Below, piece after piece: positions 1,869-62,563 of a DNA stretch of 64,000 nt. The notes below the pieces were generated by a model that saw only the letters and a program-made list of their open reading frames with translations, did no database searches and was not told the DNA's origin. The position numbers and the translations under genes are program-made. The DNA is taken from assembly GCA_050946375.1 (NCBI GenBank), contig JBMNUT010000005.1, positions 7,522 to 71,521 of the forward strand, given 5' to 3'. The number at the start of each line of letters is the position of its first letter. Within the stretch, counting starts at the first letter, position 1. The DNA comes from Bacteroidaceae bacterium (GTDB lineage Bacteria; Bacteroidota; Bacteroidia; Bacteroidales; Bacteroidaceae).

Positions 1869-1920
1869 CAGGCGGAAAGTCTTTTCTAAATTGTAGATTA
1901 GTTACCGGGAAAGTGCCGGC
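1869..1920. repeat. Two units of the GGAAA(A)GTGCC intergenic repeat family
   Basis: GGCGGAAAGTCTTTTC (1871-1886) and CCGGGAAAGTGCCGGC (1905-1920), directly after the stop at 1868. Confidence 0.45.
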
Positions 1921-1963
1921 TTATTACGTCAGAATTGATTGTTCTAATAAAAAAGATAATAAG

Positions 1964-3445
1964 ATGAAAAACAACCTGCGAAACGGGCTCCGCTCAGGAA
2001 TAGTCCGTACGAAACGATGGCTGGCCGCGCTCCTGCTGGGAGTTGTGGCGCAGGGGTGGACTGCCCCGCTGGCTGCGCAAAACGAACCGTTGGCACCGTT
2101 CACACGCGACGAGAAGCTGTATGCTTACTCCAAATTCTGGGCCGAGGTCAAACGCAACTTTGTATATATGTATAAGGTAGGCAACGACCGATGGGATTCG
2201 CTCTACCGGGCGATGCTGCCCGAGGTGATCGACAGCCGGACGGATGCCGAGTTTCTGCGCCTGATGGAGCGGTTTTGCGCTTTTCTCAAGGACGGGCACA
2301 CCGGAATCTCTTATAACGGGAGGCGCGGGCCGGACGTTACGACCACTTATTTCCGCGACGGCATTTCGCTGTGGACGGGGCTTGTGGAGGACAAGATCGT
2401 GCTGGAGCGCGTAGACTCGCTGCATGCCCGCGAGTTCCCTCCCGGTTCGGAACTGGTGGAGGTGGACGGGATACCGGCACGTGCCTACATGGAGAAGTAT
2501 TCGTTGCCCTACATTGCGGCCTCTGCGCCCCACTCGCGGCGGAAACAGGCGGCGATGTACCTGCTGATGGCGCCGAAGGGTACGGAACGCAGGCTGGTGT
2601 TCCGGGTGGACGGCGAGCTGAAACCGCTGACCGTGGTGCATGACTACGTAGGACCGTACAGCTCTTTGGTCGAACTGCCGGGCTTGCCCGCCGGGCAGGG
2701 GCGGAAGGGTTGGTTCGAACTGGCATGGCCCGAGAAACACATTGCCTACGTGCGCATTGGTACGTTTAACCGGGACGACGTAATCGAGCAGTTCGAAGCG
2801 GTCTTCCCCGAGCTGCAGAAGAAGGCAAAGGGCGTAATCATCGACCTGCGCAACAACGGGGGAGGCAGCACGATCCGGGGCACGCGGTTGCTGTCGTACT
2901 TTACTTCGAAAAATTACCTGATGGGTTCCCGTTGGTCGACGCGTTGCTACAAGCCGGCTTATGCGTCGTGGGGCGCGGCAAGTCCCAGCAGTCCGGCTCT
3001 GACGCCGGCCGATACGGTGGGCAGCAGCCTCAACCGTGAGTGTTACCTGCATGCTCAAGACCTGGCGGAGTATGTGGGCGGTATGATGGAGGCCCGCTTC
3101 GAAGAAGGGCATCCCTGCCTGGAGGTGCCGGTGGCCGTGCTGACGAACAGCAATACGGCTTCGGCCTGTGAGGATTTTCTGGTTTTTGCCGACAGTGTGG
3201 AGAATGTGTTCACCGTGGGCGAGCCTACGTACGGCAGTACGGGCAACCCGATTTTCATTCCTCTGATTTACGACCTTTCGTGCCGTATCTGTACGAAAAA
3301 GGATACGTATCCCGACGGACGCGAGTTTGTGGGCAAGGGCATCGAGCCGGATGTCTATGTGCCCGTCACGCTGGAATCGCTGATGAAGAATGACGACATA
3401 CAGCTGGAGGCGGCCATTGCGGAAGTGAAGAAACGTATGGACTGA
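1964..3445 (+). CDS. S41 family peptidase (tail-specific protease-like)
   Basis: ORF 1913..3445 trimmed to the first ATG (MKNNLRNGL...). Hydrophobic signal WLAALLLGVVAQGW. S41 motifs IIDLRNNGGGS and NTASACEDFLVF (Ser nucleophile region). Confidence 0.8.
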   Translation: MKNNLRNGLRSGIVRTKRWLAALLLGVVAQGWTAPLAAQNEPLAPFTRDEKLYAYSKFWAEVKRNFVYMYKVGNDRWDSLYRAMLPEVIDSRTDAEFLRLMERFCAFLKDGHTGISYNGRRGPDVTTTYFRDGISLWTGLVEDKIVLERVDSLHAREFPPGSELVEVDGIPARAYMEKYSLPYIAASAPHSRRKQAAMYLLMAPKGTERRLVFRVDGELKPLTVVHDYVGPYSSLVELPGLPAGQGRKGWFELAWPEKHIAYVRIGTFNRDDVIEQFEAVFPELQKKAKGVIIDLRNNGGGSTIRGTRLLSYFTSKNYLMGSRWSTRCYKPAYASWGAASPSSPALTPADTVGSSLNRECYLHAQDLAEYVGGMMEARFEEGHPCLEVPVAVLTNSNTASACEDFLVFADSVENVFTVGEPTYGSTGNPIFIPLIYDLSCRICTKKDTYPDGREFVGKGIEPDVYVPVTLESLMKNDDIQLEAAIAEVKKRMD

Positions 3446-3475
3446 AAACGGATATTTCTGAAGGCTTTACGGTCT

Positions 3476-3518
3476 GCGGGAAAAAGATTGTGGGAAAAAC
3501 CTGCAGCCTTTTTCCCGC
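3476..3518 (+). terminator. Hairpin after the S41 peptidase gene (repeat-family unit, weak terminator candidate)
   Basis: GCGGGAAAAAG (3476-3486) pairs with CTTTTTCCCGC (3508-3518) around a 21-nt loop; starts 31 nt after the stop. Only a short T-rich tail follows. Confidence 0.4.
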
Positions 3519-3523
3519 TTCTG

Positions 3524-8981: not shown

Positions 8982-9031
8982 AACCGTTATTCGTAGTGTT
9001 TCGGGATGGAGGGGAGGAAAGTTTGGTGCAA

Positions 9032-9071
9032 CGTTTTTCGGGAAAAGTGCAGGCACTTTTCCCGAAAAACG
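9032..9071. repeat. 40-bp near-perfect palindrome, the best full copy of the repeat family
   Basis: CGTTTTTCGGGAAAAGTGC-AG-GCACTTTTCCCGAAAAACG: 19-nt arms with no mismatch; 10 nt downstream of the gltX stop. Confidence 0.85.
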
Positions 9072-9080
9072 GCAAGGCTT

Positions 9081-10598
9081 TTAGCCCAATACCTCTATGG
9101 CTTTTTGTAGGCGTGCCAGCGTTTCCTCCTTGCCCAGCACGTTGGTTATTTCGAACATGTGCGGCCCGATTCCCTGCCCCACCAGAGCCAGTCGGAATGC
9201 GTTCATCACATCTCCCGTTTTGTAGCCTTTTTCTTCAATCCATTTCATGACCTCTTTCTCCTGGTTCTCCATCGAGAAATCGTCCAACCCCTGCAGAAGG
9301 TCGTGTAACTCCTTCATTTGCTGGGCAGAATACTCCTTCCAGCGCTTTTGGCGCGTCTTCTCGTCGTACGTTTCCGGCGCCACGAAGAAGAACCGGCACA
9401 GCGGTACGAGCTCTTTGATGAAGTCCACCCGGCTTTTCATCAGCCCCGCCACGTGCTCGATGCGCTCCAACGGCTCGTGTATGCCTTCCGCTTCCAGCTC
9501 CGGAGCGAGGAGCCGTGCCGCTTCAGCGTTGTCCATGCGCAGGATGTATTCGTGGTTGAACCAGATGCACTTCTTGAAGTCGAACTTGGCCCCCGACTTG
9601 TTGCAGCGTTTCAGGTCGAACAGTTCGCAAAGCTCCTCCCGGCTCATGATTTCCCGGTCGTCGCCCGGATTCCAGCCCAGCAGCGCCAGGAAATTCACCA
9701 CAGCGTCAGGCAGATAGCCTCGTTCGCGGAATCCCAGGCTCTGCTCGCCTGTCTTCGGGTCGGTCCAGGCCAGCGGGAATACGGGGAATCCCATCCGGTC
9801 GCCGTCGCGCTTGCTGAGTTTGCCCTTTCCGTCGGGTTTCAGCAAGAGGGGCAGGTGGGCAAATTCCGGCATGCTGTCGGCCCATCCCAAAGCCCGGTAG
9901 AGCAACACGTGGAGCGGGGCGGACGGCAGCCATTCCTCGCCGCGGATTACGTGGGTGATTTCCATCAGATGGTCGTCCACTATGTTGGCCAGGTGGTAAG
10001 TGGGCAGCTCGTCGGCCGATTTATACAACACCTTGTCGTCCAGTATCGTAGAGTTGATTACGACGTCTCCGCGTATCAGGTCGTGTACGTGTACCTCTTC
10101 GCCCGGTTCCACTTTGAAGCGCACGACGTACTTCGTGCCGTTTTCCATGAGCCGTTTCGTCTCTTCCTCGCCCAGGGTGAGCGAGTTTCTCATTTGCATG
10201 CGCGTTTGCGCGTCGTATTGGAAGTTGGGGATTTCCTTGCGTTTGGCCTCCAGTTCTTCGGGCGTGTCGAATGCCACATAAGCCTTGCCGCTTTCGAGCA
10301 ATTGCCTTGCATGTTTCTGGTAAATCTCCCGGCGCTCGCTCTGGCGATACGGGCCGTATTTTCCACCCCGCTGCGGGCTCTCGTCGAAGGTGATGCCTAA
10401 CCATTCGAACGATTCGGCAATGTATTCCTCGGCTCCGGGCACGAAACGTCCCGAGTCCGTATCTTCAATGCGGAGTATCAGTTCCCCGTTGTTATGACGG
10501 GCAAAGAGATAATTGTATAGAGCGGTACGCACGCCCCCGATATGCAACGCGCCCGTAGGGCTGGGAGCGAAGCGTACTCTTGTTTTGCGTTGGGTCAT
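9081..10598 (-). CDS. gltX: Glutamate--tRNA ligase
   Basis: HIGH-type motif [21 protein letters not shown]-type motif GKLSKRDG; 505 aa. Confidence 0.95.
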
Positions 10599-10626
10599 AT
10601 TGAACGTTAAATTAAGAAAAGTGCCG

Positions 10627-10634
10627 CAAAGTTA
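10627..10634 (-). promoter_or_regulatory. -7 box TAACTTTG for gltX
   Basis: The reverse complement of 10627-10634 is TAACTTTG; 28 nt upstream of the gltX ATG. Confidence 0.45.
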
Positions 10635-10716
10635 CGCCTTTTTTCTCAGAAAACGTTTTTTTCTTTCCTGAATCCCTGGCTTTTTCGTAATTTTCGCCCG
10701 CAAAGTTGAACAACCT

Positions 10717-12873
10717 ATGAAAACTTCCCAGATTACACGTACTCTTACCGCCTCGAAATGGGCTGTTCCTTCGTTGGCTTTCCTGGTGGCTATCGTGCTG
10801 ATTGTATGGTTCATGCCGCGTGAGGAGAAGTTCAATTACCAGTTTGAGACAGGCAAGCCCTGGAAATACGGCCTGCTGACGGCGCCCTACGATTTCCCCA
10901 TCTACAAGGACGCCGAGGTTGTGGCGCAGGAGCGGGACAGTCTGATGGCTTATTACCGCCCTTATGTCGCAGTCGACGACCACTTGGTCGAAGTGATGCT
11001 CTCCCGCTTGCGCAGCGACTATTCCGGCCGGCTCAAAGACCGCCTGCCCGAGGCCTGGCGCCCCCATGTCGAGCGTCTGTTGGCGGCCATCTATCAGGCC
11101 GGAGTGATGGACTCCGAGCTCTATAACAGCCTGAATCAGGAGAATGTGCAGGAAATCATGTTCATGCGCAGCAACACCGCCACGCCGGTCTCCCTCGCTT
11201 CGGTCTATACCCCCAAGAGCGCTTACAGCCTGCTGCTGAACCAAGATACGGTAAACTACCCCCTTGCGCGCCTCCAGCAGTGCGATCTTAACCTCTATCT
11301 GGAGCCCAATCTGACGTACGATACCCTCAAGTCCGACGACGCCCGGGAAGACTTGATGCTCTCCGTCTCCTCGGCCAGCGGAATGGTGCAGGCCGGGCAG
11401 AAAATCATCGACCGTGGCGAAATCGTATCCCCCCAGACGTACGTGATTCTGGAGTCCTTCCGCCAAGCCTCCCTGGCGCGCACCAGCGACCGCACCGGGC
11501 ATATCTTCATCTGGACGGGGCAGGCGCTGTACGTAGTGATTGTCTTCAGCTGTTTTGCCCTCTATCTGTTCGTCTACCGACGGGAATATTTCGAGCAGCG
11601 TAACGCCCTGTTGCTCATGATTTTCCTCATCGTCTCCTATACGGTGGCGACGTACCTGCTCGTGCGCTTTAATGTGCTGAATGTCTACATCGTCCCCTAC
11701 GCCATGATACCCATTGTCGTACACGCCCTTCTGGAGTCGCGTACGGCTTTCGTGACGCACGTCGTGACCGTGTTGCTCAGTTCCATCGCCCTGCATTTCA
11801 TCTACGAATTTGTCCTTTTCCAGCTCGTGGCGGGCATGGTGGCGGCCTACAGTCTGCGCGAACTTACGCAGCGTTCCCAGCTTTACCGCGTAGCCGTACT
11901 CGTGACGCTCACCTACTCCCTGGCCAATGTCAGTCTGGAACTGATGCACCGCAACGAGATTTCGGCCATCAACCTCAACCTTTATCTTAGTTTCCTGATA
12001 AACGGCATTTTCCTGCTCTTCTCCTACCCGTTGCTTTTCGCCATGGAGAAAGCCTTTGGCTTTACCTCCAACGTGACGTTGATTGAGCTTTCCAACACGA
12101 GCAACAAGCTCCTGCGCCGTCTTTCGGAAGAGGCGCCCGGCACTTTCCAGCACACCGTTCAGGTCAGCAACCTGGCCGCCGCCGCGGCCACCCGCATCGG
12201 GGCCAACGTGCAGCTCGTGCGTACCGGAGCGCTCTACCACGATATCGGGAAGCTCAATAACCCCATTTTCTTCACCGAGAACCAGGGCGGGCTGAACCCC
12301 CATGCCCAGCTTTCTTATGAGCAGGGCGCGAAAGTCGTCATCGACCACGTGCGCGACGGACTCAAGATAGCCGATCAGTACGGTTTGCCCAAGGTAATCA
12401 AGGACTTCATCGTCACCCACCACGGGAAGGGCACGGCCAAGTATTTCCTGGTGTCGTGGAAAAACGAGCATCCCGGGCAGGAGCCTGATTTGGAGCGCTT
12501 TTCCTATCCCGGTCCGAATCCCTTCACGCGCGAGACGGCCCTGCTCATGATGGCCGACGGCGTAGAGGCTGCGTCGCGTAGTCTGCCCGAATATACCGAC
12601 GAGGCCATCTCCTCTTTGGTCGACCGCATCATCGACGGGCAGGTGGCTGCGGGGTTCTTCAACGATTGTCCCCTTACCTTCCGCGATATCAGTCAGATAA
12701 AAGCCGTTTTCCGCGACCGTCTGAAGAGTGTCTACCATCCCCGCGTCAGCTATCCCGAGGAGAAGAAGGCGGCGCCCGCTCCGGCTGTTTCCGCGGAGGA
12801 GAAGCCTGCACTGCCGGCCGCGCCGCAGCCTGCGCCTGAGACTGAGGCATCCGCCTCAAAGAGTGAGGCATAG
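10717..12873 (+). CDS. 7TM-HD (HDIG) membrane phosphohydrolase, PgpH-like
   Basis: N-terminal TM helix plus an extracytoplasmic domain, then a central block of about seven TM helices (aa ~270-450). HD/HDIG motifs LYHDIGKLNNP and HHGKGTAKYF. Pro/Ala-rich C-terminal tail. Confidence 0.85.
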   Translation: MKTSQITRTLTASKWAVPSLAFLVAIVLIVWFMPREEKFNYQFETGKPWKYGLLTAPYDFPIYKDAEVVAQERDSLMAYYRPYVAVDDHLVEVMLSRLRSDYSGRLKDRLPEAWRPHVERLLAAIYQAGVMDSELYNSLNQENVQEIMFMRSNTATPVSLASVYTPKSAYSLLLNQDTVNYPLARLQQCDLNLYLEPNLTYDTLKSDDAREDLMLSVSSASGMVQAGQKIIDRGEIVSPQTYVILESFRQASLARTSDRTGHIFIWTGQALYVVIVFSCFALYLFVYRREYFEQRNALLLMIFLIVSYTVATYLLVRFNVLNVYIVPYAMIPIVVHALLESRTAFVTHVVTVLLSSIALHFIYEFVLFQLVAGMVAAYSLRELTQRSQLYRVAVLVTLTYSLANVSLELMHRNEISAINLNLYLSFLINGIFLLFSYPLLFAMEKAFGFTSNVTLIELSNTSNKLLRRLSEEAPGTFQHTVQVSNLAAAAATRIGANVQLVRTGALYHDIGKLNNPIFFTENQGGLNPHAQLSYEQGAKVVIDHVRDGLKIADQYGLPKVIKDFIVTHHGKGTAKYFLVSWKNEHPGQEPDLERFSYPGPNPFTRETALLMMADGVEAASRSLPEYTDEAISSLVDRIIDGQVAAGFFNDCPLTFRDISQIKAVFRDRLKSVYHPRVSYPEEKKAAPAPAVSAEEKPALPAAPQPAPETEASASKSEA

Positions 12874-12908
12874 ATTGCCGGAAAAGAAGCAGCACTTTAT
12901 TGAATGAG

Positions 12909-12965
12909 GGTGTGTCAAAACGTTCAGTTTTGGCTCACCCTCTTATTATGACACACCGCCTTTTT
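12909..12965 (+). terminator. Candidate terminator of the 7TM-HD gene
   Basis: GGTGTGTCA (12909-12917) pairs with TGACACACC (12949-12957) and is followed by GCC TTTTT. The large loop contains a CAAAAC/GTTTTG mini-hairpin. Confidence 0.5.
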
Positions 12966-13302
12966 GGTAGGTTCGCATGTGTGCGGACAATAGGGCGGGG
13001 CCGTTTCCCGCTGGTCTGCCGCAGGCGGACGGGGCAGGGGACGATAGGGGCAAAGACGGGGCAGGGAGCGTCGGAAAGCAGCCCGTGAGTGTTCCGAAAG
13101 TCGCTTTCTTTGTTTCTCATTACTCTTGTTGGGTTTGTCGGCAGAAGGCTTTTCGGAAGAGGCCGTTCCGCACTCCGATGGGGGAAAACAATTCGTTTTT
13201 AGGTCAGTGTGAATGCTTTTCTGTTCCGTTTGAACCGTAGATTTCCCCTCTGTATGCGATTCTGGTATTTATTAACGCGGCCTGTGCGCACAATTCGGGC
13301 TT

Positions 13303-13346
13303 GTTTCATTTCCGTTTCATCTCCGTTTTATTCTTGTTTCGAGTCG
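13303..13346. repeat. Four tandem 11-bp units GTTTCATYTCC-like
   Basis: GTTTCATTTCC / GTTTCATCTCC / GTTTTATTCTT / GTTTCGAGTCG, contiguous, with a period of 11 bp. Confidence 0.7.
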
Positions 13347-13540
13347 ATTTTCCTCGTTTTGAGGCTTAAAAGTATGTTTTTGAACAGGATTTTCCGGTAT
13401 TCTTAACCGACAAGTCGGCGGAGGATAGGCATTTGCTTTTTTAACACAACAGTGTTTAATCGAAAAACTAAAGAAGCGTGAATATTTTGCGAGTTTAATA
13501 TGAGAAATGACAACTAACTTCTTTTCTTTTAGCTCCGTTT

Positions 13541-13834
13541 TAGCACTTTTCGGCCGGTTTTTTGCTCGAAAATAGCCCCTCGTAAACCGCCTTTTCGGGC
13601 AACTCGAAAGCGCATTTTCAGGGGCTTTTCCGGAGAGTCTTTCATGTGCCTCTCGATGTTCTGAAAGTCTTTGTTTATCGGGCTTTACGCGATTTCTTGC
13701 CCGACGGAATCCGTTTCCGGAAAGCGTCTTCCTGGGACGGTCGGGGCGAAGTGCTTTCGGACCCTTTCTCCGGTTCGCCCTGCACGCCCGGAATATGTTT
13801 TGCGGCAAGTCCCTAAAATTTTTCACGAAAAAGT
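13541..13834. repeat. Degenerate array of TTTYCGG/CCGRAAA-cored units upstream of the FAS1/SusCD promoter
   Basis: At least 9 cores: CTTTTCGGCC 13546, CTTTTCGGGC 13591, ATTTTCAGGGG 13614, CTTTTCCGGA 13626, GTTTCCGGAAA 13713, GCTTTCGGAC 13753, CTTTCTCCGG 13765, GTTTTGCGGC 13797, TTTTTCACGAAAAAG 13820. Spacing is irregular (12-49 bp). Confidence 0.5.
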
Positions 13835-13844
13835 CTCCTATTAT

Positions 13845-13877
13845 TTTGCTTGTCTTGTGTTTTTTGACTTATCTTTG
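13845..13877 (+). promoter_or_regulatory. Bacteroides-type promoter of the FAS1/SusCD operon
   Basis: TTTG at 13845-13848, a 21-nt spacer, then TATCTTTG at 13870-13877. This leaves a ~90-100 nt AT-rich leader before the ATG at 13977. Confidence 0.5.
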
Positions 13878-13976
13878 CAACACGTACTCTAAAAAGGGGA
13901 CGTTGTGCCCTGACATTTGTGCGGAAAAAATCGAGAACAAATAAAACTAAATTACTAATTCATAACTAATAAGCGA

Positions 13977-16877
13977 ATGAAAACAAGATTGTGCTGTTTG
14001 TGCTCTAACTTGGCGTTCGGTCTTTTTCTTATGGTCGGTACCGGTATGCTGGTATCTTCGTGTAAGAGCGACTTGGACGAGTTGCTGGAAGACGGCACCT
14101 CGCCGGAATGGTTGGGTTCGAGCATTTATTCCACGTTGCAAGAACGGGGGAATTTTAACTACACGTTACGCTTGATCAACGACATGCCCGGTTATGCTTC
14201 TATCCTCTCGCGGACGGGTAGCCGTACTGTCTTCGTGGCAAACGACGATGCTTGGGAACGTTTCTTCCGGGGCGAATCGTATAACCCGTGGTTGAACCCC
14301 GGTGAGACCATGACGTACGAAGACCTTACGCAGGCACAGAAGCAGTGGATCATGAACAACTCGATGATCAATGCAGCTTACCTGATTGAGCGCCTCTCTA
14401 CGACCTCTTCCAACGGTTCTTTCTCCGAGGGGCAGGCTATGCGCCGTGAGGCATTTACTTCGCAAGAAGATACCACGAAAATCTACTACGGAGACCAGAT
14501 TACGAACAAGCTCTCCGGTTTGAGAACTCAGAACACGCATTGGGACAACATCCTCAACACGGAAGATACACTCCACCTCGGCTATGCGCGCAACGATGAA
14601 GTTCTTATGGTGCACTTCACCGACGATCTGCGTGAGAACAAAGGCATAACCGATTTGGATATGAGCTACATCGTGGGTGGAAAAGGCACGGAAAACGCAA
14701 CGGATGCCTATGCTGATGATTTGACGAACCGTCCCTGGGCTTCTGATGAGGAGCGCGAAAATCGTACCTATATATATACGGATCCCGTTATCGAGCAGGA
14801 CATCACCTGTCAGAACGGATACATCCACGTGTTGGGCGACGTGCTCGTTCCGCCTTCCAATATGGCCGACGAACTGGAGAAGCAGGAAGACTGCTCGATT
14901 TTCTCCAGCTTCCTGGACCGCTACACCATGCCGGTCGTAATCGGTCGTACGTCCAACGGCAAGAACATCTATCGTAAGGTGTACTTCGCTGCCAGTGGTT
15001 CGTATGACGGCTCCAACTACGAAAACGCAGGTTCTACCGGTCTGTCGCGCGACTCCAGTGACAACGAAATGGCAACGCTTGCTTTCGACCCGACGTGGCA
15101 CCACAATACTTATTCTACTGAAACCTATCAGCAGAACATGGCAGCCATGTTTGTTCCGACCAACGAGGCTCTTACCGAATGGTGGAACAGTTCTACCGGT
15201 CAGCTGGTCATGAACGGCATGTCGGACTGGAGTGAAGTGGAAAACAGCTTGCTCCGCGTGCTGATCAACGTACACATGAAAACGAGCTTCACCAACAGCT
15301 TGCCTTCCAACTTCTCCCGCATCCTGAACGACGGTAACCGCGAGCAGGGAATCACCGAGAGCGATGTGGTACGCACGATCTTGGCAAACAACGGCGTAAT
15401 CTATGTAGTAAATAAGGTATATACGCCCGACTCTTATATTTCCGTTATGGCTCCGCTTCACAACGTGGCAGAATTGACCGTAATGCAGCGCGCCGTAACC
15501 TGCACCGACCAGACGACTTACATCCCGGACGGATACGGAACGTATCTGAACTCCATGGAAAGTACGTTTACCTTCCTCATTCCGGAAAACAGCGCTCTGA
15601 TCGATTATCGTGATCCTATTTATTGGAATGCCGCTTGGGCTACCGGCGACTATCGTCAGATCAGCTTCGAGTATAACACGACTTCTACGTGGTCATCTTC
15701 TACCGGAACACGTTTCAACGTAGGTGCTACCTATCAGGATGTGACCGACGCTACTTCGCAGTCCGGTACTATTGAGGGTACCAAGGGTATGAACCTGCTG
15801 AAGGATATTCTGGAGAACAGCATTATCGTGATGGACAACAACAGCGCTCAGTCGGAATGGACCTCCGGAAACGGCGGCTACTACCAGACGAAGGGCGGTG
15901 CTATGGTATACATCGATCGTTTTGCTGAAGGTGGCCATGTATATGGTGGTGGTAACACGGACCGCGCTTCCGGCGAATATGATCCGGCTACGGTAACCGT
16001 CTTCTACAACCAGTCGGCTTACAACTTGAACGGTATGACCGGTTCTGACGGTAACGGTGTTTCCCTCCAGCTCGACAAGGTGGTACAGCCTTCGCGCACG
16101 AGCGTGTTGGATGCTTTGCAGCAGCACGATGAGTTCAGCGAGTTCTATAATTTGCTGACCGGTCTGGATGAAGTACTGGCTACCTACGAAGATGCTACGG
16201 AAGACCCCGGTCTTGACGACGAAGAGGGCGACGGTTCTGAAACGGGAACCGGTATGTCTACCTTCCTTACGGCTGTGAATACCAATGCGGATACAGCTCG
16301 TCTGTATAATCCTGTTTATAATTACACTGGAACTTCCACGTACACCAAGTCGCCTGTAATCAACTTCTTGGGTAACTACAACTACACGTTGTATGTTCCG
16401 ACCAATGAAGCTATGGCTGAGGCTTATGCACAAGGTCTTCCTCACTGGAGTGACCTGACTGTTCCGGGAATGACCGACGGACAACAACGTGAGATCTGCC
16501 GCAAGATCATGAACTTCATCCGTACGCACTTCCAGGATACTTCTATTCCTACCAACGGTAATGCCGGCTACTACAAATCGCAGTCGTTCAACTCGGCAGA
16601 AGGTGTGTTCTATGAACTGTATTTCGATCCGGCAGCTGGTGAGGTGTACACCCGCGAGCAACCCAGCGAAAGAGCTCATCTGGTAGACCCCACCACCAAG
16701 GTGCCTGCACGCGAAAACCTTTCGAACATCATTTCGCGCGATTATCGCTTCAGTGCTGCAGCTACGAGCGATGCTGCTACGATTTCTTCTTCTGCACACG
16801 TGTTGATTCACGCCATCGATGCTCCCTTGTTCATCAGTGCGTTGGACAACAATGGAATCAGAGAACAATTTGAATAA
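13977..16877 (+). CDS. Lipoprotein with about four fasciclin (FAS1) domains
   Basis: Lipoprotein signal ...GMLVSSCKSD. Repeated FAS1 H1/H2-type motifs: TVFVANDDAWERFF / NGYIHVLGDVLVPP; AMFVPTNEALTEWW / NGVIYVVNKVYTP; FTFLIPENSAL; YTLYVPTNEAMAEAY / HVLIHAIDAPL. Confidence 0.75.
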   Translation: MKTRLCCLCSNLAFGLFLMVGTGMLVSSCKSDLDELLEDGTSPEWLGSSIYSTLQERGNFNYTLRLINDMPGYASILSRTGSRTVFVANDDAWERFFRGESYNPWLNPGETMTYEDLTQAQKQWIMNNSMINAAYLIERLSTTSSNGSFSEGQAMRREAFTSQEDTTKIYYGDQITNKLSGLRTQNTHWDNILNTEDTLHLGYARNDEVLMVHFTDDLRENKGITDLDMSYIVGGKGTENATDAYADDLTNRPWASDEERENRTYIYTDPVIEQDITCQNGYIHVLGDVLVPPSNMADELEKQEDCSIFSSFLDRYTMPVVIGRTSNGKNIYRKVYFAASGSYDGSNYENAGSTGLSRDSSDNEMATLAFDPTWHHNTYSTETYQQNMAAMFVPTNEALTEWWNSSTGQLVMNGMSDWSEVENSLLRVLINVHMKTSFTNSLPSNFSRILNDGNREQGITESDVVRTILANNGVIYVVNKVYTPDSYISVMAPLHNVAELTVMQRAVTCTDQTTYIPDGYGTYLNSMESTFTFLIPENSALIDYRDPIYWNAAWATGDYRQISFEYNTTSTWSSSTGTRFNVGATYQDVTDATSQSGTIEGTKGMNLLKDILENSIIVMDNNSAQSEWTSGNGGYYQTKGGAMVYIDRFAEGGHVYGGGNTDRASGEYDPATVTVFYNQSAYNLNGMTGSDGNGVSLQLDKVVQPSRTSVLDALQQHDEFSEFYNLLTGLDEVLATYEDATEDPGLDDEEGDGSETGTGMSTFLTAVNTNADTARLYNPVYNYTGTSTYTKSPVINFLGNYNYTLYVPTNEAMAEAYAQGLPHWSDLTVPGMTDGQQREICRKIMNFIRTHFQDTSIPTNGNAGYYKSQSFNSAEGVFYELYFDPAAGEVYTREQPSERAHLVDPTTKVPARENLSNIISRDYRFSAAATSDAATISSSAHVLIHAIDAPLFISALDNNGIREQFE

Positions 16878-16896
16878 TAAATAGGATTATATAATT

Positions 16897-20229: not shown

Positions 20230-20249
20230 TCTTAAAAGAATAAGTTGAA

Positions 20250-22097: not shown

Positions 22098-22117
22098 CGT
22101 AGCTTGAATACTTGAAA

Positions 22118-24127: not shown

Positions 24128-24151
24128 CACCGAAAACGTAAATAATAAAAA

Positions 24152-39209: not shown

Positions 39210-39235
39210 TTGGGGAAAAGGCACAAGAGTTATGC

Positions 39236-39279: not shown

Positions 39280-39296
39280 GTGTAAGCCTTGCTGCT

Positions 39297-42740: not shown

Positions 42741-42743
42741 GCA

Positions 42744-42895
42744 GGGGAGAGGCGGAAAAATCGGTTGCGACAATTCGGGAAAGCCGCTGTGTTCCCGCAA
42801 AAAAAGGGCCGAGGAGCAGACCGCATGTGGAGTTGCTCTCCCGACGTCGGGGAAGTGATTTTTTTAAGTGGGTTGGGTGAAGTACGTAGGTAAGC
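42744..42895. repeat. Decayed copy 1 of a ~175-bp tandem duplication (mscS 3' end + terminator + repeat units)
   Basis: Aligns by eye at roughly 85% with 42917-43072: GGGGAGAGG..GGTTGCGRCAATTCGGGAAAGCCGYTGTGTTCCCGYAAAAAAAG..GAGCAGNCCGCATGTGGAGYTGCTC...GAAGTACGNAGGTAAG. Confidence 0.75.
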
Positions 42896-42916
42896 TGCCT
42901 TGTTTTGCCCGGACGT

Positions 42917-43072
42917 GGGGGAGAGGTGGGGAAAGCGGTTGCGGCAATTCGGGAAAGCCGTTGTGTTCCCGTAAAAAAAGAAGCGGGGGAGCAGTCCGCA
43001 TGTGGAGCTGCTCCCCCGCCGTTTGGGATAGGGTTATTCTTTTACGATAACCTGGTTGAAGTACGGGTAAGG
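42917..43072. repeat. Copy 2 of the tandem duplication (the functional mscS 3' end and terminator)
   Basis: See copy 1. The offset between copies is 173-179 bp, varying with small indels. Confidence 0.75.
42970..43019 (-). terminator. Rho-independent terminator of mscS
   Basis: GCGGGGGAGCAG (42983-42994) / CTGCTCCCCCGC (43008-43019). On the minus strand it is followed by TTCTTTTTTTAC. Lies 15 nt after the mscS stop. Confidence 0.85.
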
Positions 43073-49900: not shown

Positions 49901-49986
49901 GTGCCAGCACTTTTCCGCGAGAGTCGGGGCACTTCCGGCAAAAAGCCCTGCCGCTTTTGTCCGTTTCCGGCTTCGCTTTCGGCGCG
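49899..49986. repeat. Four repeat-family units directly after the GH115 stop
   Basis: AAGTGCCAGCACTTTTCCGC / GAGAGTCGGGGCACTTCCGGC / AAAAAGCCCTGCCGCTTTTGTCCG / TTTCCGGCTTCGCTTTCGGCGCG. Confidence 0.6.
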
Positions 49987-50015
49987 ACGTCTGCCCTCTC
50001 ACTCATAAACTACTT

Positions 50016-52992: not shown

Positions 52993-53040
52993 AAGAATTA
53001 TTGGATTTGTGAAGTGATTCGTCGCAGGGAAGCCTCTGTC

Positions 53041-53166
53041 GGTGCCGTACTTTTCCGCCGGAGCCTTGCCGCTTTCCGGGAAAAGCCTTGCATGTTTTCC
53101 GCAAAAGTCTTGCATCTTTTTCGAAAAAGTCTTGCCGCTTTCCGCAGGGCGGGGCAGCGCGCTTCC
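53041..53166. repeat. Six tandem 21-22-bp units in the divergent ADH / GH2 control region
   Basis: Units at 53041-59, 53060-80, 53081-102, 53103-23, 53124-45, 53146-66. For example AAAAGCCTTGCATGTTTTCCGC / AAAAGTCTTGCATCTTTTTCG / AAAAAGTCTTGCCGCTTTCCGC. Confidence 0.75.
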
Positions 53167-56227: not shown

Positions 56228-56228
56228 C

Positions 56229-56408
56229 TCCGGCTTTTGCCGCAAACGCAGGGTGCTGCCGCTTTTTTCCTATGCCGCAAGGGGAGAAAAGCGGCAGTAC
56301 TTTATCGGAAAACAAGCAGTACTTTATCGGAAAAGCGGCGGCACTTTTGCGGGGAACTGCCGGCACTTTTGCAGAAAAGATGCGACACTCCGGCGGGCAT
56401 TTTGCGCC
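56229..56408. repeat. Array of ~8 units after the GH2 stop, including a 19/22-identical tandem pair
   Basis: AAAAGCGGCAGTACTTTATCGG (56287-56308) / AAAACAAGCAGTACTTTATCGG (56309-56330) / AAAAGCGGCGGCACTTTTGCGGGG / AACTGCCGGCACTTTTGCAG / AAAAGATGCGACACTCCGGCGGGCATTTTGCGCC. Confidence 0.75.
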
Positions 56409-56601
56409 CCTTGGCGGGGTAAGCTGCTATCTTCGGCTGTCAACTTGCGGCGCTCCTGAAGGAGAGTCTTGCCGGTATGGTTAAAAAGATAAAATAAACG
56501 AAAGATTTTTGGGTACACACTTGACGGAAAGAAATAGTTTTGTTATATTTAGCGCGTGAGAAATCTCTCAAATAGTTCCACTCTTTAAAAAATAATGCCT
56601 T

Positions 56602-57053: not shown

Positions 57054-57138
57054 TAGCGTACAAAGCCAGACTTTGTGCGCTGTCTTTTTATTCCGGGATT
57101 ATTAGTTTCTCTTACAAACAAGCAAAATATTATTGCCT

Positions 57139-60100
57139 ATGAAAAAGCGAATTTTTCTACTATTGTTGAGTGTCTTTGGACTAAGCCTTTGGACAGTCGC
57201 CCAATCGGTAACTGTCGGTGGGGTGGAATATGTGTACCACGAGTCTGAAGGCTATGCCGAGGCTACGAATTATGAGCGTGGCACGGTGAAAGAGTTGCAC
57301 ATCCCTGCGTCGGTGGTCTATAATGGTGTGGAGTATCCCGTGCAGGTTATCCAGTTTAACTGCAATGGCGACCCTGATTTGACGGAAGCATTGATTGAAG
57401 CGCCTGCTACCGAATTGGAGTGGGGCTTCTTCGCAGATTGCACGGCTTTGCAGAGGGTAGACCTGAGCGGCACGCTGCTCTCGGAAATCCCCGGGGAATT
57501 CTTCCGGGGTTGCAGCTCGCTTACGGAGGTAAGCCTGCCCGAAACGGCTGAAAGAATTGCCGAAAGTGCCTTTTCCGACTGCAGCTCTCTGGAAACATTT
57601 GAGGTTCCGGCAGGCGTAACCTCCATAGCCAATGGCGTTTTCAGTGGCTGTACGGCTCTGAAGGACCTTACCTTTGCCAACAGCACGGAAGAACTTGTTT
57701 TGGAAAACGATTTCTGTTCGTCGCTTACCGCACTGCATAATCTGTATATTGGCCGCAATGTGTCGGGAGTCAGCTATGGCAGCTTGTTTGCCGAGGCTGT
57801 GGAATTGCGGAATGTCACGATCGGTGGTCTCGCAATTGCCGTGCCGGCAGATGCTTTCAGCGGGGCTCCTAACCTGGAGGCGGTAGTGGTTGCGGATAAT
57901 GTGGAGACGATTGGTAATAATGCCTTTGCCAATTGTCCGAATTTGAAAAGCATATTGCTTCCCGAGCGCCTGCGGTCTATCGGGGATAATGCCTTCGAAA
58001 ACGACGGTCAGCTTGCAGATTTGCTCCTGCCCGCAGGGGTGACGCGACTTGGGGATAGGGCTTTCTACGGATGCGCCAGCCTCGAGGAAATGAGTGTGCC
58101 CGATGAAGTGAAGGTTTTGCCGGCCTATCTGTTTGCGAACTGCTCGGCCTTGCGGCGGATAGTGCTGCCCGACAGGCTGGAAGACATGGGTACTTCTACG
58201 TTTTCGGGTTGCACTTCGCTCAAAGATATCAATATCCCTTCGGGAATCCGGGTGCTTCCTGACTATGTTTTCGATGGGTGTATGGCGTTGGACACGCTCA
58301 TAATTCCGAATAACGTGCAGACCATCGGCAACCATGCCTTCGGTTCTTGCGGAAATCTGGCGCAGATTACGTTCGGCGCGCAGGTGGATACGATTCGCGA
58401 CGGCGCATTTGCTGACTGCGTGAAGCTGCAAAATCTGTATTACGACGGCACGATGGTTGACTGGTGCCACATCTATTTCGAGGTTCAGTCGTTCCAGGAA
58501 GATACGAACCCCTTGACTTATGCCCGGGCGTTGTACATGCCGGACGAAGAAACGGGTGAGTATTCCTTGATTGAGGACCTGGTTATTCCCGACGAGGTAG
58601 ACTCTATTCGCGGATTGGCCTTCTCCCGTTTCCGGGGAGCGAAGACCCTTTTCGTCTCCGACTCGGTGAAATACATAGGAACTGATGCGTTCAGCTCTTG
58701 TACCGCCTTGAGAAAGGCGAGAATCGGGGCCGAAACGATTGACGATTATGCCTTCTCCGGCTGTCTCTCGCTGGACTCTTTGACGATTGGCCCGCGGCTT
58801 CGCTCGGTGGGTGAATACGCTTTCTCCAGTTGCGACCGCCTCTTCGACGTGTTCTACGAGGGTGACTTGTCGGGTTGGTTCTTTATTTCGTTCGCAGCCG
58901 CCAACGCAAATCCGCTGAACGGCGCCGAACGCTTCTACGTGCAGGGCGACTTGATTGAAGAACTGACAGTGCCCCGCTACGTAATCCGCGTGCGCGATTA
59001 CTGTTTCTACGGCTATCGCGGGCTAAAGCTGGTGCGCGCTCACTCGGTGGTGGATGACATTGGCAAGTATGCCTTTGCGAACTGTCCGAATCTCACGGGT
59101 ATTTTGAAAATAAGTGCCTCCGATTTGGAGAAAAACACCCGGGCCTTTTCCGCCGAAGTGCCGGGACTTTCCATCGGGGAGGGTGCATTTGAAGGATGTT
59201 CGTTGCTGGCAACGATGGAACTTGGCGACAGGGTTACCCAAGTCGGCGCCTATGCGTTCGACGGTACGGCCTGGTACAACAACCAGCCGGACGGGCTGCT
59301 TTACATCGGAACGTGCGCCTATGAATATAAAGGTACCATGCCGGCCGGCACGGTGCTTACCCTGCGCGAAGGAACGACGCAGGTGTGCGATGGCGCTTTT
59401 GCCGAGACTTCGGCCGAAGGGCTGCTCACCGGCATCGTGTTGCCCCAGAGCTTGCGCGGCATAGGCAGCAGAGCTTTCTCCGGATGTACGGGACTTACGT
59501 CGATAAACATTCCCTCTGGCGTCACGACCATCGGCAGTTCGGCCTTCTCGGGCTGCAGCAATCTGACAGGCGTGCAGCTCCCCTCGTCGCTCGAGGTGCT
59601 GGAAGAAAACACTTTCGAGAACTGTTCGTCCATTTCCTCACTGACTATTCCCGCTTCGGTGAAGCGCTTCTGGCTTTATGCCATAAAGGGAATGACGGGA
59701 CTGAAGAGCCTCGTGCTGGAAGACTCGTCGGATACGCTGGCTTGCCTCTACCTTTATAGTGATTTCAGCGACCTTCCTATCGAATATACCTACATCGGTC
59801 GTGACTTAAATACCTATGTTGCTTATGGAGACGTGGTGACTCCCATGGAAAGCATGCCGCTTTTCCAGTATAAGGAGACGCTGAAAGAAGCCGTAATCGG
59901 GGCTGAAGTGACGGAAATCGACCCCTATCTTTTCATGGGTTGCAGCAATCTGACTGAAATCTCTTCCGTTTCGCCCGAGCCGCCCGTATGCCTCAAGTCG
60001 GAATACAGCGATGTTTACCGCAACTTCGACGGCGTGGATTACAACGCGTGTCTGCTCCGCGTGCCGGTAGGGGCTAAGGAGCGCTATGCGGCCGCAGGAG

Positions 60101-60285
60101 GATGGAGCGATTTCTTCAATATCGAGGAAGATGCGACGGTGGGCATTGAGCGCGTTGAGGCCGGCGATGCCGAGGTTTCGGCTACGCACTACGACGTGAG
60201 CGGCCGTCCGCTCAGTCAGGACGCCAAGGGTCTGCACATCATACGCTACTCCGACGGACGGGTTGAGAAGGTGATTGTTGAGTAA
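57139..60285 (+). CDS. BspA-type leucine-rich-repeat surface protein with T9SS C-terminal sorting domain
   Basis: Signal peptide MKKRIFLLLLSVFGLSLWTVAQS. More than 20 repeats of ~23 aa with the pattern IP.(S/G)V..IG..AF..C..L (e.g. INIPSGVTTIGSSAFSGCSNLTGVQLPSSLEVLEENTFENCSSISSLTIPASV). C-terminal VSATHYDVSGRPLSQDAKGLHIIRYSDGRVEKVIVE is a T9SS CTD. Confidence 0.85.
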   Translation: MKKRIFLLLLSVFGLSLWTVAQSVTVGGVEYVYHESEGYAEATNYERGTVKELHIPASVVYNGVEYPVQVIQFNCNGDPDLTEALIEAPATELEWGFFADCTALQRVDLSGTLLSEIPGEFFRGCSSLTEVSLPETAERIAESAFSDCSSLETFEVPAGVTSIANGVFSGCTALKDLTFANSTEELVLENDFCSSLTALHNLYIGRNVSGVSYGSLFAEAVELRNVTIGGLAIAVPADAFSGAPNLEAVVVADNVETIGNNAFANCPNLKSILLPERLRSIGDNAFENDGQLADLLLPAGVTRLGDRAFYGCASLEEMSVPDEVKVLPAYLFANCSALRRIVLPDRLEDMGTSTFSGCTSLKDINIPSGIRVLPDYVFDGCMALDTLIIPNNVQTIGNHAFGSCGNLAQITFGAQVDTIRDGAFADCVKLQNLYYDGTMVDWCHIYFEVQSFQEDTNPLTYARALYMPDEETGEYSLIEDLVIPDEVDSIRGLAFSRFRGAKTLFVSDSVKYIGTDAFSSCTALRKARIGAETIDDYAFSGCLSLDSLTIGPRLRSVGEYAFSSCDRLFDVFYEGDLSGWFFISFAAANANPLNGAERFYVQGDLIEELTVPRYVIRVRDYCFYGYRGLKLVRAHSVVDDIGKYAFANCPNLTGILKISASDLEKNTRAFSAEVPGLSIGEGAFEGCSLLATMELGDRVTQVGAYAFDGTAWYNNQPDGLLYIGTCAYEYKGTMPAGTVLTLREGTTQVCDGAFAETSAEGLLTGIVLPQSLRGIGSRAFSGCTGLTSINIPSGVTTIGSSAFSGCSNLTGVQLPSSLEVLEENTFENCSSISSLTIPASVKRFWLYAIKGMTGLKSLVLEDSSDTLACLYLYSDFSDLPIEYTYIGRDLNTYVAYGDVVTPMESMPLFQYKETLKEAVIGAEVTEIDPYLFMGCSNLTEISSVSPEPPVCLKSEYSDVYRNFDGVDYNACLLRVPVGAKERYAAAGGWSDFFNIEEDATVGIERVEAGDAEVSATHYDVSGRPLSQDAKGLHIIRYSDGRVEKVIVE

Positions 60286-60390
60286 CGCAGCCTTGCCTTC
60301 CGGAAAAAGTCCTTGGGCTTTTTCCGGAAAGTGCAGGGACTTTTCATACGAAGTGCCGCGTCTTTCTCCGGAAAGGCGCGGCACTTTTTT
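60286..60390. repeat. Five units between the convergent LRR and GT2 genes
   Basis: CGCAGCCTTGCCTTCCGG / AAAAAGTCCTTGGGCTTTTTCCGG / AAAGTGCAGGGACTTTTCATACG / AAGTGCCGCGTCTTTCTCCGG / AAAGGCGCGGCACTTTTTT. Contains a perfect TTTCCGGAAA at 60321-60330. Confidence 0.7.
60351..60390 (+). terminator. Rho-independent terminator of the LRR gene (built from repeat-family units)
   Basis: AAGTGCCGCG (60351-60360) / CGCGGCACTT (60377-60386) followed by TTTT, with a TCTCCGGAAAGG-containing loop. Confidence 0.8.
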
Positions 60391-60408
60391 AGGTTTCCGC
60401 AGGGCGGG

Positions 60409-61212
60409 TCAGTGGAAAATCCGGCGTAGAACGATGCGCAGGTGCGAGGCGATGGCGGCTCCGCGGCCATAGTGTTTGGCCATAATGCGGAAGCGCTCGC
60501 GCAGGGAGGCCCGGTGATTTTGCGTAGTGAGGCCTTCGTCGAGGTAATCGATGAGGGTGTCTCGCGTATAGTAGTTGTAGCGGCTGAAGGAAAGGAGCCG
60601 TATGCACCAGTCATAGTCGGCGGAGTATCGGTATTGAAGGTCGTAGTCTATCCATTGCCCCTCGGCTTTTTTCCGGAGGTTGCCCACCTTTCCTTCGCAG
60701 AGGGGGCGCGACGGCCAGAAGGCCTGGTGGCAGACGAGCATTCCCTGCAGGAAGCTGTGGCTGGTGAGCGTGTCGGGTGCCCGGTAGTGGCGTGGCCGCA
60801 GGTATTTCCCTGTGGCGTCCACGATGTTTGTCTGCCCGTAAAGCAGGTCGGGGCGGGGACTTTCTTCCATGACCTGGTCGGCCGCTTCGCGCAGGGTCTG
60901 CACCGAGTGAAACCGGTCGCCGGCGTTCAGGAAAATCAGGTAGTCGCCCGTGGCCTGATGGAGGCCCTTGTTCATGGCGTCATACAGGCCTTTGTCCGGC
61001 TCGCTCTGCAGCTTGACGCCTGCCGTGCAGTGCTCCCGCAGCTGAGGCTCCAGCTCTTGGGCCAGGGCGAAGGTGCGGTCTTTGGAGTTTCCGTCTATGA
61101 GGATGAATTCGATGTGCTGGTATTTCTGTGCGAGTATGCTCGCCAATGTGGCCGGGAGGGTGCGCTCGGCGTTGTAGGTTACGGTGATGATGCTGAAAAC
61201 TGGTGCGCTCAT
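60409..61212 (-). CDS. Glycosyltransferase family 2
   Basis: FSIITVTYNAERTLPATLASILAQ...ILIDGNSKD...FLNAGD (GT-A fold with DxD-like motif); 267 aa; 4-nt overlap with the upstream GT4 gene. Confidence 0.85.
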   Translation of the reverse strand: MSAPVFSIITVTYNAERTLPATLASILAQKYQHIEFILIDGNSKDRTFALAQELEPQLREHCTAGVKLQSEPDKGLYDAMNKGLHQATGDYLIFLNAGDRFHSVQTLREAADQVMEESPRPDLLYGQTNIVDATGKYLRPRHYRAPDTLTSHSFLQGMLVCHQAFWPSRPLCEGKVGNLRKKAEGQWIDYDLQYRYSADYDWCIRLLSFSRYNYYTRDTLIDYLDEGLTTQNHRASLRERFRIMAKHYGRGAAIASHLRIVLRRIFH

Positions 61213-62489
61213 AGTTTGGTTTGTGCTAATATATTCCGGTAGAGTTGCAGGTATTTTTCCCCAACGACGGCCGGATCGTAGCAGCGGGCCACCTTGTTTA
61301 TGGCCTCGCGGCTGAGTTCTTCGTAGTTTGGTGCGCCGAGCAGATAGGCCATGCCCTCGGCCAAGTCTTCTGCCGACTTGTATTTGGCGAGAAAGCCATT
61401 GCGCTTGTGGTCAATCATCTCGGGAATTCCGCCGATGCGGAAGCCCGCGCAGGGCAAACCGCAGGCCATTGCTTCCATAATGGTGTTCGGAAGGTTTTCT
61501 TCCAGCGAGGGTGTTACGAAAAGGTCTGCGGCGTTGTAGGCAAGGGCCATCTCCTTTCCGCTCTTCAGGTAGCCGAGCGGGTAGACGGGGAAGGGGATTT
61601 GTGCGTTTACCTGCTCGTCTCCCTGCCCGAAGATGGCTATTCCGAGCCGCCCGTCTGCTGTCCATTCCGGATGTTTGCCGGCCAGTATCCGGCAAGCGTC
61701 TATGAAGTAATCGATGCCCTTGCGCTTGTCGGTGAACTTGCATGCGCCGAAGAGGATGAATTTCTTGCCTTCCGGCAGGAGATTGCCCCAGTGTTTTCGC
61801 GCTTCGGCCTTGTCCATGGGGCGGAAGGCCTGCGGGTCGATGGGGTTGGGTATGGCGCAGATTTCCTTTCCCTTGAGCAGGGCGGACTGTTCGGCCTGCT
61901 TTTTGAGCCACTGGCTGCAGGTTACGAAGTGGAGCGGCGCGTCGGCATAGATGCGCGCCTTGTGTCGGAAGCAGCTGCGGGCCAGGTTGAGCAGGGGGCC
62001 GTGGTTCTTGAGAAACGGGCATGCGCGGCATTCCGTGTGATACTCGGTGCATTCCCGCGCGTGGTGGCAGATGGCTGTGCAGGGCCACATGTCGTGCATG
62101 GTCCAGACCACGGGCTTTCCGCTGCGGAAGATGCGCTCCAGGTCGCGGAGCGAGAGGAAGCCTTGGTTAATCCAGTGCAGGTGTATGAGGTCGGCCTCGC
62201 GGAACTCGGGGCGCGTAGTGATGTCGGTTCCGGCGTTGGCTATGTCGACGGCGAAGAGATTCTGCCGGCTGAATCGGTTAGAGGCCCAGATGACGAGCCG
62301 TTCCCACAGGAAGTTTCGGCGCAGCCGCCACGAGGGTTGCAGGCTGAGGACCGAGGGGTCGTCGGTCGAACGGTCGCGCACGAGCATGCGCGCCTCCACG
62401 CCTTTTTCCTGAAGGACGCGCATGATGCGCCCGGCTGCCACGGCGGCTCCGCCGGTAAGTTCGGAGGTATTGACGAAGAGTACTTTCAT
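61209..62489 (-). CDS. Glycosyltransferase family 4 (GT-B, GT1/GT4 type)
   Basis: ORF 61209..62531 trimmed to the ATG at 62489 (MKVLFVNTSELTGGAAVAA). EX7E-type motif VTPSLEENLPNTIMEAMACGLPC. Confidence 0.8.
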   Translation of the reverse strand: MKVLFVNTSELTGGAAVAAGRIMRVLQEKGVEARMLVRDRSTDDPSVLSLQPSWRLRRNFLWERLVIWASNRFSRQNLFAVDIANAGTDITTRPEFREADLIHLHWINQGFLSLRDLERIFRSGKPVVWTMHDMWPCTAICHHARECTEYHTECRACPFLKNHGPLLNLARSCFRHKARIYADAPLHFVTCSQWLKKQAEQSALLKGKEICAIPNPIDPQAFRPMDKAEARKHWGNLLPEGKKFILFGACKFTDKRKGIDYFIDACRILAGKHPEWTADGRLGIAIFGQGDEQVNAQIPFPVYPLGYLKSGKEMALAYNAADLFVTPSLEENLPNTIMEAMACGLPCAGFRIGGIPEMIDHKRNGFLAKYKSAEDLAEGMAYLLGAPNYEELSREAINKVARCYDPAVVGEKYLQLYRNILAQTKL

Positions 62490-62502
62490 GTTTCCTTTAA
62501 AT

Positions 62503-62563
62503 GTTGCGGTACTTTTCCGCAAAAGTGGCAAGGCTTTCGGATGAAAGTGCCGGGACTTTCCGG
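62503..62563. repeat. Three units between the GtrA stop and the GT4 start
   Basis: GTTGCGGTACTTTTCCGC / AAAAGTGGCAAGGCTTTCGG / ATGAAAGTGCCGGGACTTTCCGG. Confidence 0.6.

Follow-up and report, generated by a model that had tools for sequence, protein, structure and literature searches.

A clade-specific family of 22-bp intergenic repeats with a palindromic core in uncultured Bacteroidaceae

A dispersed 22-bp repeat between the genes of the window

We analyzed a 64-kb stretch of a Bacteroidaceae chromosome (contig JBMNUT010000005.1, hereafter the window) and the family of degenerate 22-bp repeats that lies between its genes. The open reading frames (ORFs) of the window were scanned against Pfam for the gene map, which is that of a Bacteroidaceae-type chromosome segment, with SusC/SusD pairs, an HTCS hybrid two-component regulator, sdhCAB, gltX, kdtA, and lptD. 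The nearest species representative is L001, an uncultured Bacteroidaceae metagenome-assembled genome (MAG) whose GltX is 90% identical; the following relatives reach 80% at most. After gene-start correction, coding DNA amounts to 57.9 kb and non-coding DNA to 6.1 kb, or 9.5% of the window. Five samples that had been assembled independently contain the same loci, which rules out an assembly artefact as the source of the repeats.

A preliminary description of the window had placed 2-8 degenerate units of about 22 bp, the best of them full palindromes, in almost every intergenic gap. The repeat family is real, and every sequence quoted in that description, including the palindromes at 9041-9062, 56359-72, and 35494-508, was found in place. 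Its density had been overstated: a recognizable unit occurs in 13 of the 23 intergenic gaps of at least 30 nt, and the arrays hold 1-6 recognizable units, joined head to tail without linkers. With about one array per 5 kb, the family takes up about 2% of the window. The units are 60-85% identical, and the arrays are found in tandem, convergent, and divergent gaps, many of them abutting stop codons.

Exact-pattern searches were ineffective because the units are too degenerate. We built a 22-nt position weight matrix (PWM) iteratively, with scores in bits and cut-offs of 17 or 15 bits; its consensus is TTTCCGGAAAAGTGCCGGCACT, and most of its information lies in CTTT and GAAAAG, which flank a CCGG centre. 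The sequence TTCCGGAA occurs 11 times against 1.67 expected, a count that none of 100 shuffles reached. Six copies lie in the non-coding DNA, as described before, and five in the coding DNA, where a copy at 54440 had been missed. Allowing up to 3 mismatches, the 14-mer palindrome CTTTTCCGGAAAAG gave 29 matches (3.7 expected), and the half-site GGAAAAGTGCC with up to 2 mismatches gave 46 (20.2 expected).

The 22-bp phasing was evident in several searches. Only intergenic DNA showed base autocorrelation peaks, at lags 22 and 44. A sliding scan of self-identity over lags 10-35 singled out lag 22, with 5 high-identity segments, while each other lag gave 0-3 segments, which came from coding DNA and fell at multiples of three. 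Tandem Repeats Finder (TRF) reported period-22 arrays at 31661-727, 35455-513, 53062-144, and 56286-347, and a repeat search of the window returned families with copies 22 nt apart that are spread over different loci. To avoid circularity, we split the window, training the PWM on one half and scoring the second half, with an ORF map that conservatively counted array-containing N-terminal extensions as coding. Unit density was 10-40 times higher in non-coding than in coding DNA, bearing out the intergenic enrichment proposed earlier, and shuffled sequence gave almost no matches.

One earlier suggestion was that the units are decayed copies of the Bacteroidetes -7 box TAnnTTTG; they could also be decoys of it. 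There is some resemblance, in that the gltX promoter reads GCGTAACTTTGCGGCACTTTTC, similar to a unit, and the unit PWM gives the sdh -7 box 17.4 bits. However, TAnnTTTG is not enriched in the window (24 matches, 25.3 expected) and is absent from every phased array. Units have CACTTTTC instead, which deviates at key positions 1 and 8, and a 22-bp period is unlike the -33/-7 spacing. The plausible real -7 boxes, at 3548, 10627 (minus strand), 13870, 33656, 42079 (minus strand), 44613, 56535, and 57046, all lie outside phased arrays. The only exact match at a locus flagged as repeat is the gltX promoter at 10627, and that locus (10605-10680) proved to be mostly genuine promoter. Since -7 boxes are neither enriched nor found inside phased arrays, we rejected the promoter-relic reading as extremely improbable. 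The arrays sit between an upstream stop codon or terminator and a downstream promoter, at variable distance. A generic sigma-70 promoter/terminator scan was non-discriminating (19 matches, 21.9 expected). Resemblance to sigma-54 sites, the CodY box, CIRCE, dif, or USS/DUS was dismissed on spacing or architecture, as judged against their consensus sequences.

Unit structure, helical phasing, and folding

Each unit can be divided into a core, the roughly 14-bp palindrome CTTTyCCGGrAAAG, and an arm of some 8 bp. Arm identity is 0.56 within arrays and 0.47 between arrays, both above random, which indicates that whole units share ancestry. Two arm types recur, namely the self-complementary GTGCCGGCAC and GCGGCA(A/G)GGCT, which is not self-complementary. 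The arms are direct repeats in the 53062 array and inverted at 9036-9075, 60346-60390, and L001:7638-7671, where they give long perfect or near-perfect palindromes; that of L001 is a perfect 34-bp palindrome. Full palindromes are present, as first noted, but only in a minority of loci.

With about 10 bp between them and a repeat distance of 22 bp, the CTTT and AAAG blocks share one helical face. The arrays could be same-face sites to which a protein binds as a dimer and along which it polymerizes cooperatively; a global regulator, a roadblock protein, or a nucleoid-associated protein specific to the clade are candidates. The geometry fits same-face binding, as proposed in the preliminary description, with blocks one turn and units two turns apart, and the direct repeats stand at integral helical turns, as in operators and iterons. 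The conserved blocks occupy unit positions 21-2 and 9-12 while the arms vary; the period is uniform over loci and in both carrier species, the consensus was maintained through array turnover (see below), and most arrays are independent of hairpin formation. A precedent exists in the Bacteroides HTCS regulators, for which direct repeats about 21 bp apart have been predicted (PMC3878776). Iteron and operator arrays, including the predicted HTCS repeats (PMC3878776), likewise show direct repeats about two turns apart on one helix face, but each is tied to a particular origin or promoter, and the protein that recognizes it is known, whereas the present arrays occur in half of the gaps, at variable distance from promoters, and turn over between species. 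Array position is not fixed relative to -7 boxes, orthologous sites do not keep their arrays, strains of the species differ in copy number, and no candidate protein was identified; moreover, the conservation profile is partly inflated, since the units were selected by PWM. On balance, we regard a binding-site role as the main alternative to the reading favored below, though a doubtful one.

Phased A/T-tracts could also act through intrinsic DNA curvature as their sole function. In a wedge model, five consensus copies were moderately curved (end-to-end/contour ratio 0.83), and the arrays at 35445 and 56260 were more curved than shuffles (z = -3.2 and -2.2). Seven of the nine arrays stayed within the shuffle range, however, and the T-tract/A-tract spacing alternates between 8 and 14 bp instead of keeping to 10.5 bp. 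The wedge parameters were checked on the known A4T4 versus T4A4 contrast. Curvature alone is thus a very improbable explanation.

We then compared the RNA folding of the arrays with that of shuffled sequences. Folding was strongly in excess at 9015-9085 (z = -6.9), 60286-60400 (z = -8.0 and -5.1 for the two strands), and L001:12950-13070 (z = -3.1), and more weakly at 62495-62570 (z = -2.5). At 31655, 35445, 42620, 49885, 53040 (both strands), and 56260, z ranged from +1.3 to -1.4, without excess over shuffles. Below a z of -2.5 there are 3 of the nine window arrays analyzed, or 4 of 10 loci including the one in L001, and hairpins are not a common feature of the family.

These results bear on the proposal that the units are a hairpin family of the repetitive extragenic palindromic (REP) or bacterial interspersed mosaic element (BIME) kind, which would shape mRNA 3' ends by termination or exonuclease protection, or bind gyrase, and be mobilized by a Y1 enzyme of the REP-associated tyrosine transposase (RAYT) type. 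The units resemble REPs and BIMEs (PMC3733652) in being short, clustered, species-specific, hairpin-capable palindromic repeats outside genes, with many arrays next to stop codons. The strong hairpins at 9015-9085, 60286-60400, and L001:12950-13070, the palindrome at L001:7638-7671, and two terminator-like hairpins made of units point the same way. The GTAG and CGTC tags define two REP super-families of Proteobacteria (PMC3733652), but neither occurs in TTTCCGGAAAAGTGCCGGCACT. Six window arrays fold no better than shuffles, the arms of the 53062 array are direct rather than inverted, the units are joined without linkers, and arrays also occupy divergent promoter gaps. No RAYT is known to be associated with the family, and no transposase family was found among the Pfam-scanned ORFs of the window. 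The hairpin proposal is therefore only partly supported: a general hairpin family is rejected on the folding z-scores, and a REP-like role we judge unlikely.

A unit reads as an A-tract, a GC-rich arm, and a T-tract, so an inverted pair of units has the shape of a bidirectional terminator. Two such unit-built hairpins lie between convergent genes. One is made by the two final units (60346-60395) of the 4-5-unit array at 60286-60395 and has a stem of 17 bp with T6 behind it, and at 39217-39298 two inverted units, AAAAAAGATGCAAGGG ... CCCTTGCATCTTTTTT, homologous to those of the 53062 array, form the second. Both show the GC-rich hairpin and T run of an intrinsic terminator, which most arrays lack. 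Directly after the gltX stop (9015-9080), 2-3 units form a hairpin with a 19-bp stem on the sense (minus) strand (z = -6.85), and a strong hairpin of different sequence stands at this site in the other carrier species. It looks as though some members have been taken over as 3'-end structures, although this is not the general state of the family; in this respect, the family shows a repeat providing raw material for terminators. By sequence reading, other terminator-like hairpins at about 7660, 31510, 36940, 51770, and 56870 have no sequence kinship to the units.

Distribution, turnover, and possible origin

The family is clade-specific, being confined to this species and one relative (GltX 89-90%). 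At a threshold of 17 bits, the PWM matched 29 times in the 64 kb of the window and 6 times in 21.5 kb of L001, against 2 matches in 1.3 Mb from 79 other Bacteroidales gltX loci. The sister-species contigs L140-L142 (GltX 89%) gave 7 matches each at 15 bits or more, with the same consensus and 22-bp period, and L140 also holds a TRF period-22 array. At the same cut-off, no match was found in L137 (GltX 80%, 48.7% GC) or in L138 and L139 (GltX 76%, 42% GC), and the relatives at 76-80% contain only a few scattered copies of TTCCGGAA, without unit context. Within the lineage, the carriers are the tip with high GC (54-57%).

Intergenic DNA grew along with the family. The gltX-kdtA gap, just 6 nt long in the 76% relative, is 75 nt in the relative at 80%, 77 nt in sister-species contigs, and 99 nt here in the window, and non-coding DNA of the syntenic region, as estimated from called genes, rises from about 6.6% in the array-free L138 to about 12.6% in the carrier L140.

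In searches for described counterparts, no Rfam covariance model matched, whether the gathering threshold or E <= 0.05 was applied, one array compared with plasmids by BLAST and another compared with phages gave no matches, and a viral scan for CACTTTTCCGGAAAAGTG gave none either. A metagenome scan for CACTTTTCCGGAAAAGTG returned 49 loci, none from this clade. Together with the literature searches, these results agree with the earlier impression that the element had not been described, and the family is apparently undescribed as far as such sources show. The metagenome loci belong mostly to unrelated organisms of 30-34% GC that bear another, singleton 26-bp palindrome, ATTCCACTTTTCCGGAAAAGTGGAAT. 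This palindrome is highly conserved, has TCAA/TTGA-like flanks, and recurs on many contigs out of few samples (L088-L136, JGI metagenome contigs); its appearance is that of an operator, or of a REP-like element, belonging to some unrelated organism of low GC.

To follow the arrays between species, we compared orthologous gaps of the window and L001. Both hold units, but their sequences cannot be aligned, whereas the neighboring kdtA leader and gltX promoter are conserved between the two carrier species. Unalignable orthologous arrays with a shared consensus imply that arrays are replaced as species diverge, yet the consensus and the 22-bp period outlast this turnover; for that, the units must either be propagated sequence-specifically or be under selection. 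Within the species, we aligned five contigs to the window. One 22-bp unit (56290-56311) is present in the window and L083 and missing in L082 and L084-L086. Relative to the window, L082 carries a TT-to-AA change in the 60286 array. It coincides exactly with the 4-nt loop of the hairpin predicted there (CTTG to CAAG) and is the signature of a palindrome centre flipped by template switching.

A patch in the gltX coding sequence pointed to exchange between loci. At 10275-10316 (minus strand), both arms of two adjacent units can be recognized with 22-nt spacing, and the 36 nt at 10281-10316, which encode 12 residues, are 31/36 identical to the two adjacent units at 53062-53097, with both arms perfect and only the core differing. 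Identity to the 31673 array is 28/36, and 20 codon-shuffled gltX controls reached at most 24-26 identities. The patch differs from the sister species at nine positions; all seven in the arms show the array state, and the two in the core do not. This suggests templated exchange between an array and the gltX coding sequence 43 kb away. If the exchange is true, dispersed repeats edit a housekeeping gene. A stretch of a BspA-type leucine-rich repeat (LRR) gene at 59113-59168 (plus strand) is unit-like (21.9 bits by PWM; 27/36 identical to the 42647 array) and translates as SASDLEKNTRAFSAEVPGLS; it may be an in-frame repeat insertion.

Dispersed intergenic tandem repeats are a familiar class in bacteria. 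The mycobacterial interspersed repetitive units (MIRUs), which behave as variable-number tandem repeats (VNTRs), are dispersed between co-directional genes, abut stops and starts, and vary in copy number between strains, as the 22-bp arrays do. MIRU units are 46-101 bp long and contain small ORFs overlapping the genes on either side. The unit described here differs in its length of 22 bp, which is no multiple of 3, and in its palindromic core. A second counterpart is BrickBuilt, a 23-nt minisatellite MITE (miniature inverted-repeat transposable element) found in Porphyromonas gingivalis (PMC4596501). It shares with our family a Bacteroidales host, a strictly intergenic location, a narrow host range, and spacer-less, head-to-tail, imperfect units of 22-23 nt that are gained and lost whole between strains (PMC4596501). 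Unlike our family, with its arrays of 1-6 degenerate, palindrome-cored units about every 5 kb, BrickBuilt has leader and tail segments with IS5-like terminal inverted repeats (TIRs), 19 copies per genome, and up to 22.8 units per copy with 0-11% mismatch between units (PMC4596501). The repeat search of the window found no conserved leader, tail, or TIR flanks, just the 22-nt unit families D1-D5. Given the weak folding of most long arrays and the lack of a REP tag, TIRs, -7 boxes, and an Rfam match, the family is neither REP/BIME, a BrickBuilt-type MITE, nor a set of promoter boxes. Its behavior is nearest to that of dispersed VNTR minisatellites such as MIRU and the internal repeats of BrickBuilt, and it is a fresh example of this familiar class. 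As VNTR markers, the arrays are ready for strain typing in this uncultured gut Bacteroidaceae clade.

Taking these observations together, we favor, at roughly even confidence, the view that the arrays are a largely selfish or neutral family of dispersed intergenic VNTR-like minisatellites, kept going by slippage, palindrome-mediated template switching, and some further copying process, with occasional take-over as terminators. Arrays change length by whole units, as seen at 56290-56311 and as replication slippage would produce, and palindrome centres can flip, as in L082. Single arrays are replaced between sister species while the family consensus stays, as the orthologous gaps indicate. Under this scheme, units would be copied between loci by ectopic templated repair or a mobilizing enzyme, and the gltX patch hints at ectopic conversion as the copying process. 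The arrays would fill unconstrained DNA, as a rule beginning at a stop codon and leaving about 25-30 nt free ahead of the following start or promoter. Direct units would be converted to inverted pairs when the template is switched at their palindromic core, and such pairs would make bidirectional terminator-like hairpins, some apparently co-opted as 3'-end structures; most copies would have no sequence-specific cellular function.

Several points weigh against this view. No dispersal mechanism was identified, the Pfam-scanned ORFs of the 64-kb window include no transposase, and neither TIRs nor target-site duplications were found. The uniform 22-bp period and the uneven conservation, high in CTTT and AAAG and low in the arms, are equally expected from selection for protein binding. 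The retention of a hairpin after the gltX stop in both carriers hints at a function at that site. Within-species change comprises one unit indel and one loop flip only, and the clade material beyond the window is small (about 40 kb).

Two further ideas strike us, as a pair, as rather improbable. The family could spread and stay uniform without a dedicated transposase, by template switching and short-patch ectopic conversion that both start from the 14-bp palindromic core, and such copying would then even overwrite essential coding sequence, as the gltX patch and the LRR-gene stretch might illustrate. Otherwise, the arrays could be loading platforms for a clade-specific protein that polymerizes along one face of the DNA and would have arisen together with the GC rise and the doubled intergenic DNA of the clade. 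If such a binding protein exists, it would represent a new nucleoid or insulator system in Bacteroidota.

Individual arrays and neighboring features

Of the loci listed in the preliminary description, those at 1869-1920, 3476-3518, 10605-10680, and 13541-13834 are weak or contain single units. At 1902-1923, a single unit, TTACCGGGAAAGTGCCGGCTTA (17.2 bits), lies in a gap of 95 nt that ends at the true start of S41 (1964, inferred from translation), and a single strong unit at 12875-12896 (24.8 bits) begins 1 nt past the 7TM-HD stop. The tract at 13541-13834, in a 1.1-kb non-coding region, is a degenerate, weak member whose best unit reaches 10-13 bits and which has no lag-22 segment; an ORF there (13317-13826, minus strand) has no Pfam match.

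Downstream of a canonical terminator, about 3-5 units with a period of 22-23 and GCAGCAAGGCT arms occupy 31655-31775 (TRF score 83; lag-22 segment; z = +1.2). Three units found by TRF and PWM (22-24 bits) lie at 35446-35513 between the ABC-F and M24 peptidase genes. About five degenerate units at 42622-42740 are unstructured (z = -0.4) and keep CTTT every 22 nt. The PWM also located 3-4 units at 49890-49990, the first of which overlaps the final codons and stop of GH115, and 3 units at 62492-62558, between the gtrA stop and the GT4 start. The divergent Fe-ADH/GH2 gap (53040-53165) holds 4-5 unstructured units with directly repeated AGYCTTGC arms, detected by TRF (lag-22 identity 0.73). The largest array (56228-56410; TRF score 89; lag-22 identity 0.76) comprises 6-8 units, among them the strain-variable unit 56290-56311.

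The arrays matter for annotation, as they inflate ORFs and give false N-terminal extensions, a claim of the preliminary description that proved correct. For kdtA, which was called as 408 aa against a 433-aa ORF, the start lies 99 nt downstream of the gltX stop; Fe-ADH was called as 392 aa against 453. The true start of the M24 peptidase was placed at 35541, its AMP_N domain beginning at residue 48 of the long ORF. Long shadow ORFs also lie opposite real genes, at 31723-32709 (minus strand; metallophosphoesterase), 10612-12738 (minus; 7TM-HD), 61245-63122 (plus; GT4), and 33641-35245 (minus; ABC-F). Such ORFs are typical for a GC-rich genome and are a trap for ORF-based annotation.

We also noted other features of the window. 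A seven-gene polysaccharide-utilization locus at 13977-31464 encodes three fasciclin-domain proteins and two SusC/SusD pairs, and its gaps of 14-24 nt contain no repeat units. Upstream of it, the T-rich non-coding region at 12874-13976 (1.1 kb) includes 2.7 tandem copies of the 11-bp sequence GTTTCATTTCC (13303-13332). Its length is the same in L140 and L137, as against only 229 nt in L138. The LRR surface-protein gene (57133-60285; 4539-7687 in L082) is polymorphic between strains, being one ORF of 1048-1050 aa in the window and L083 and split into 131 and 841 aa in L082, L085, and L086. Finally, downstream of mscS, a segment of about 175 bp is duplicated in tandem at 42736-43028. Its copies are 80-86% identical, each closes with a GC-rich hairpin, and they have no relation to the 22-bp repeats.

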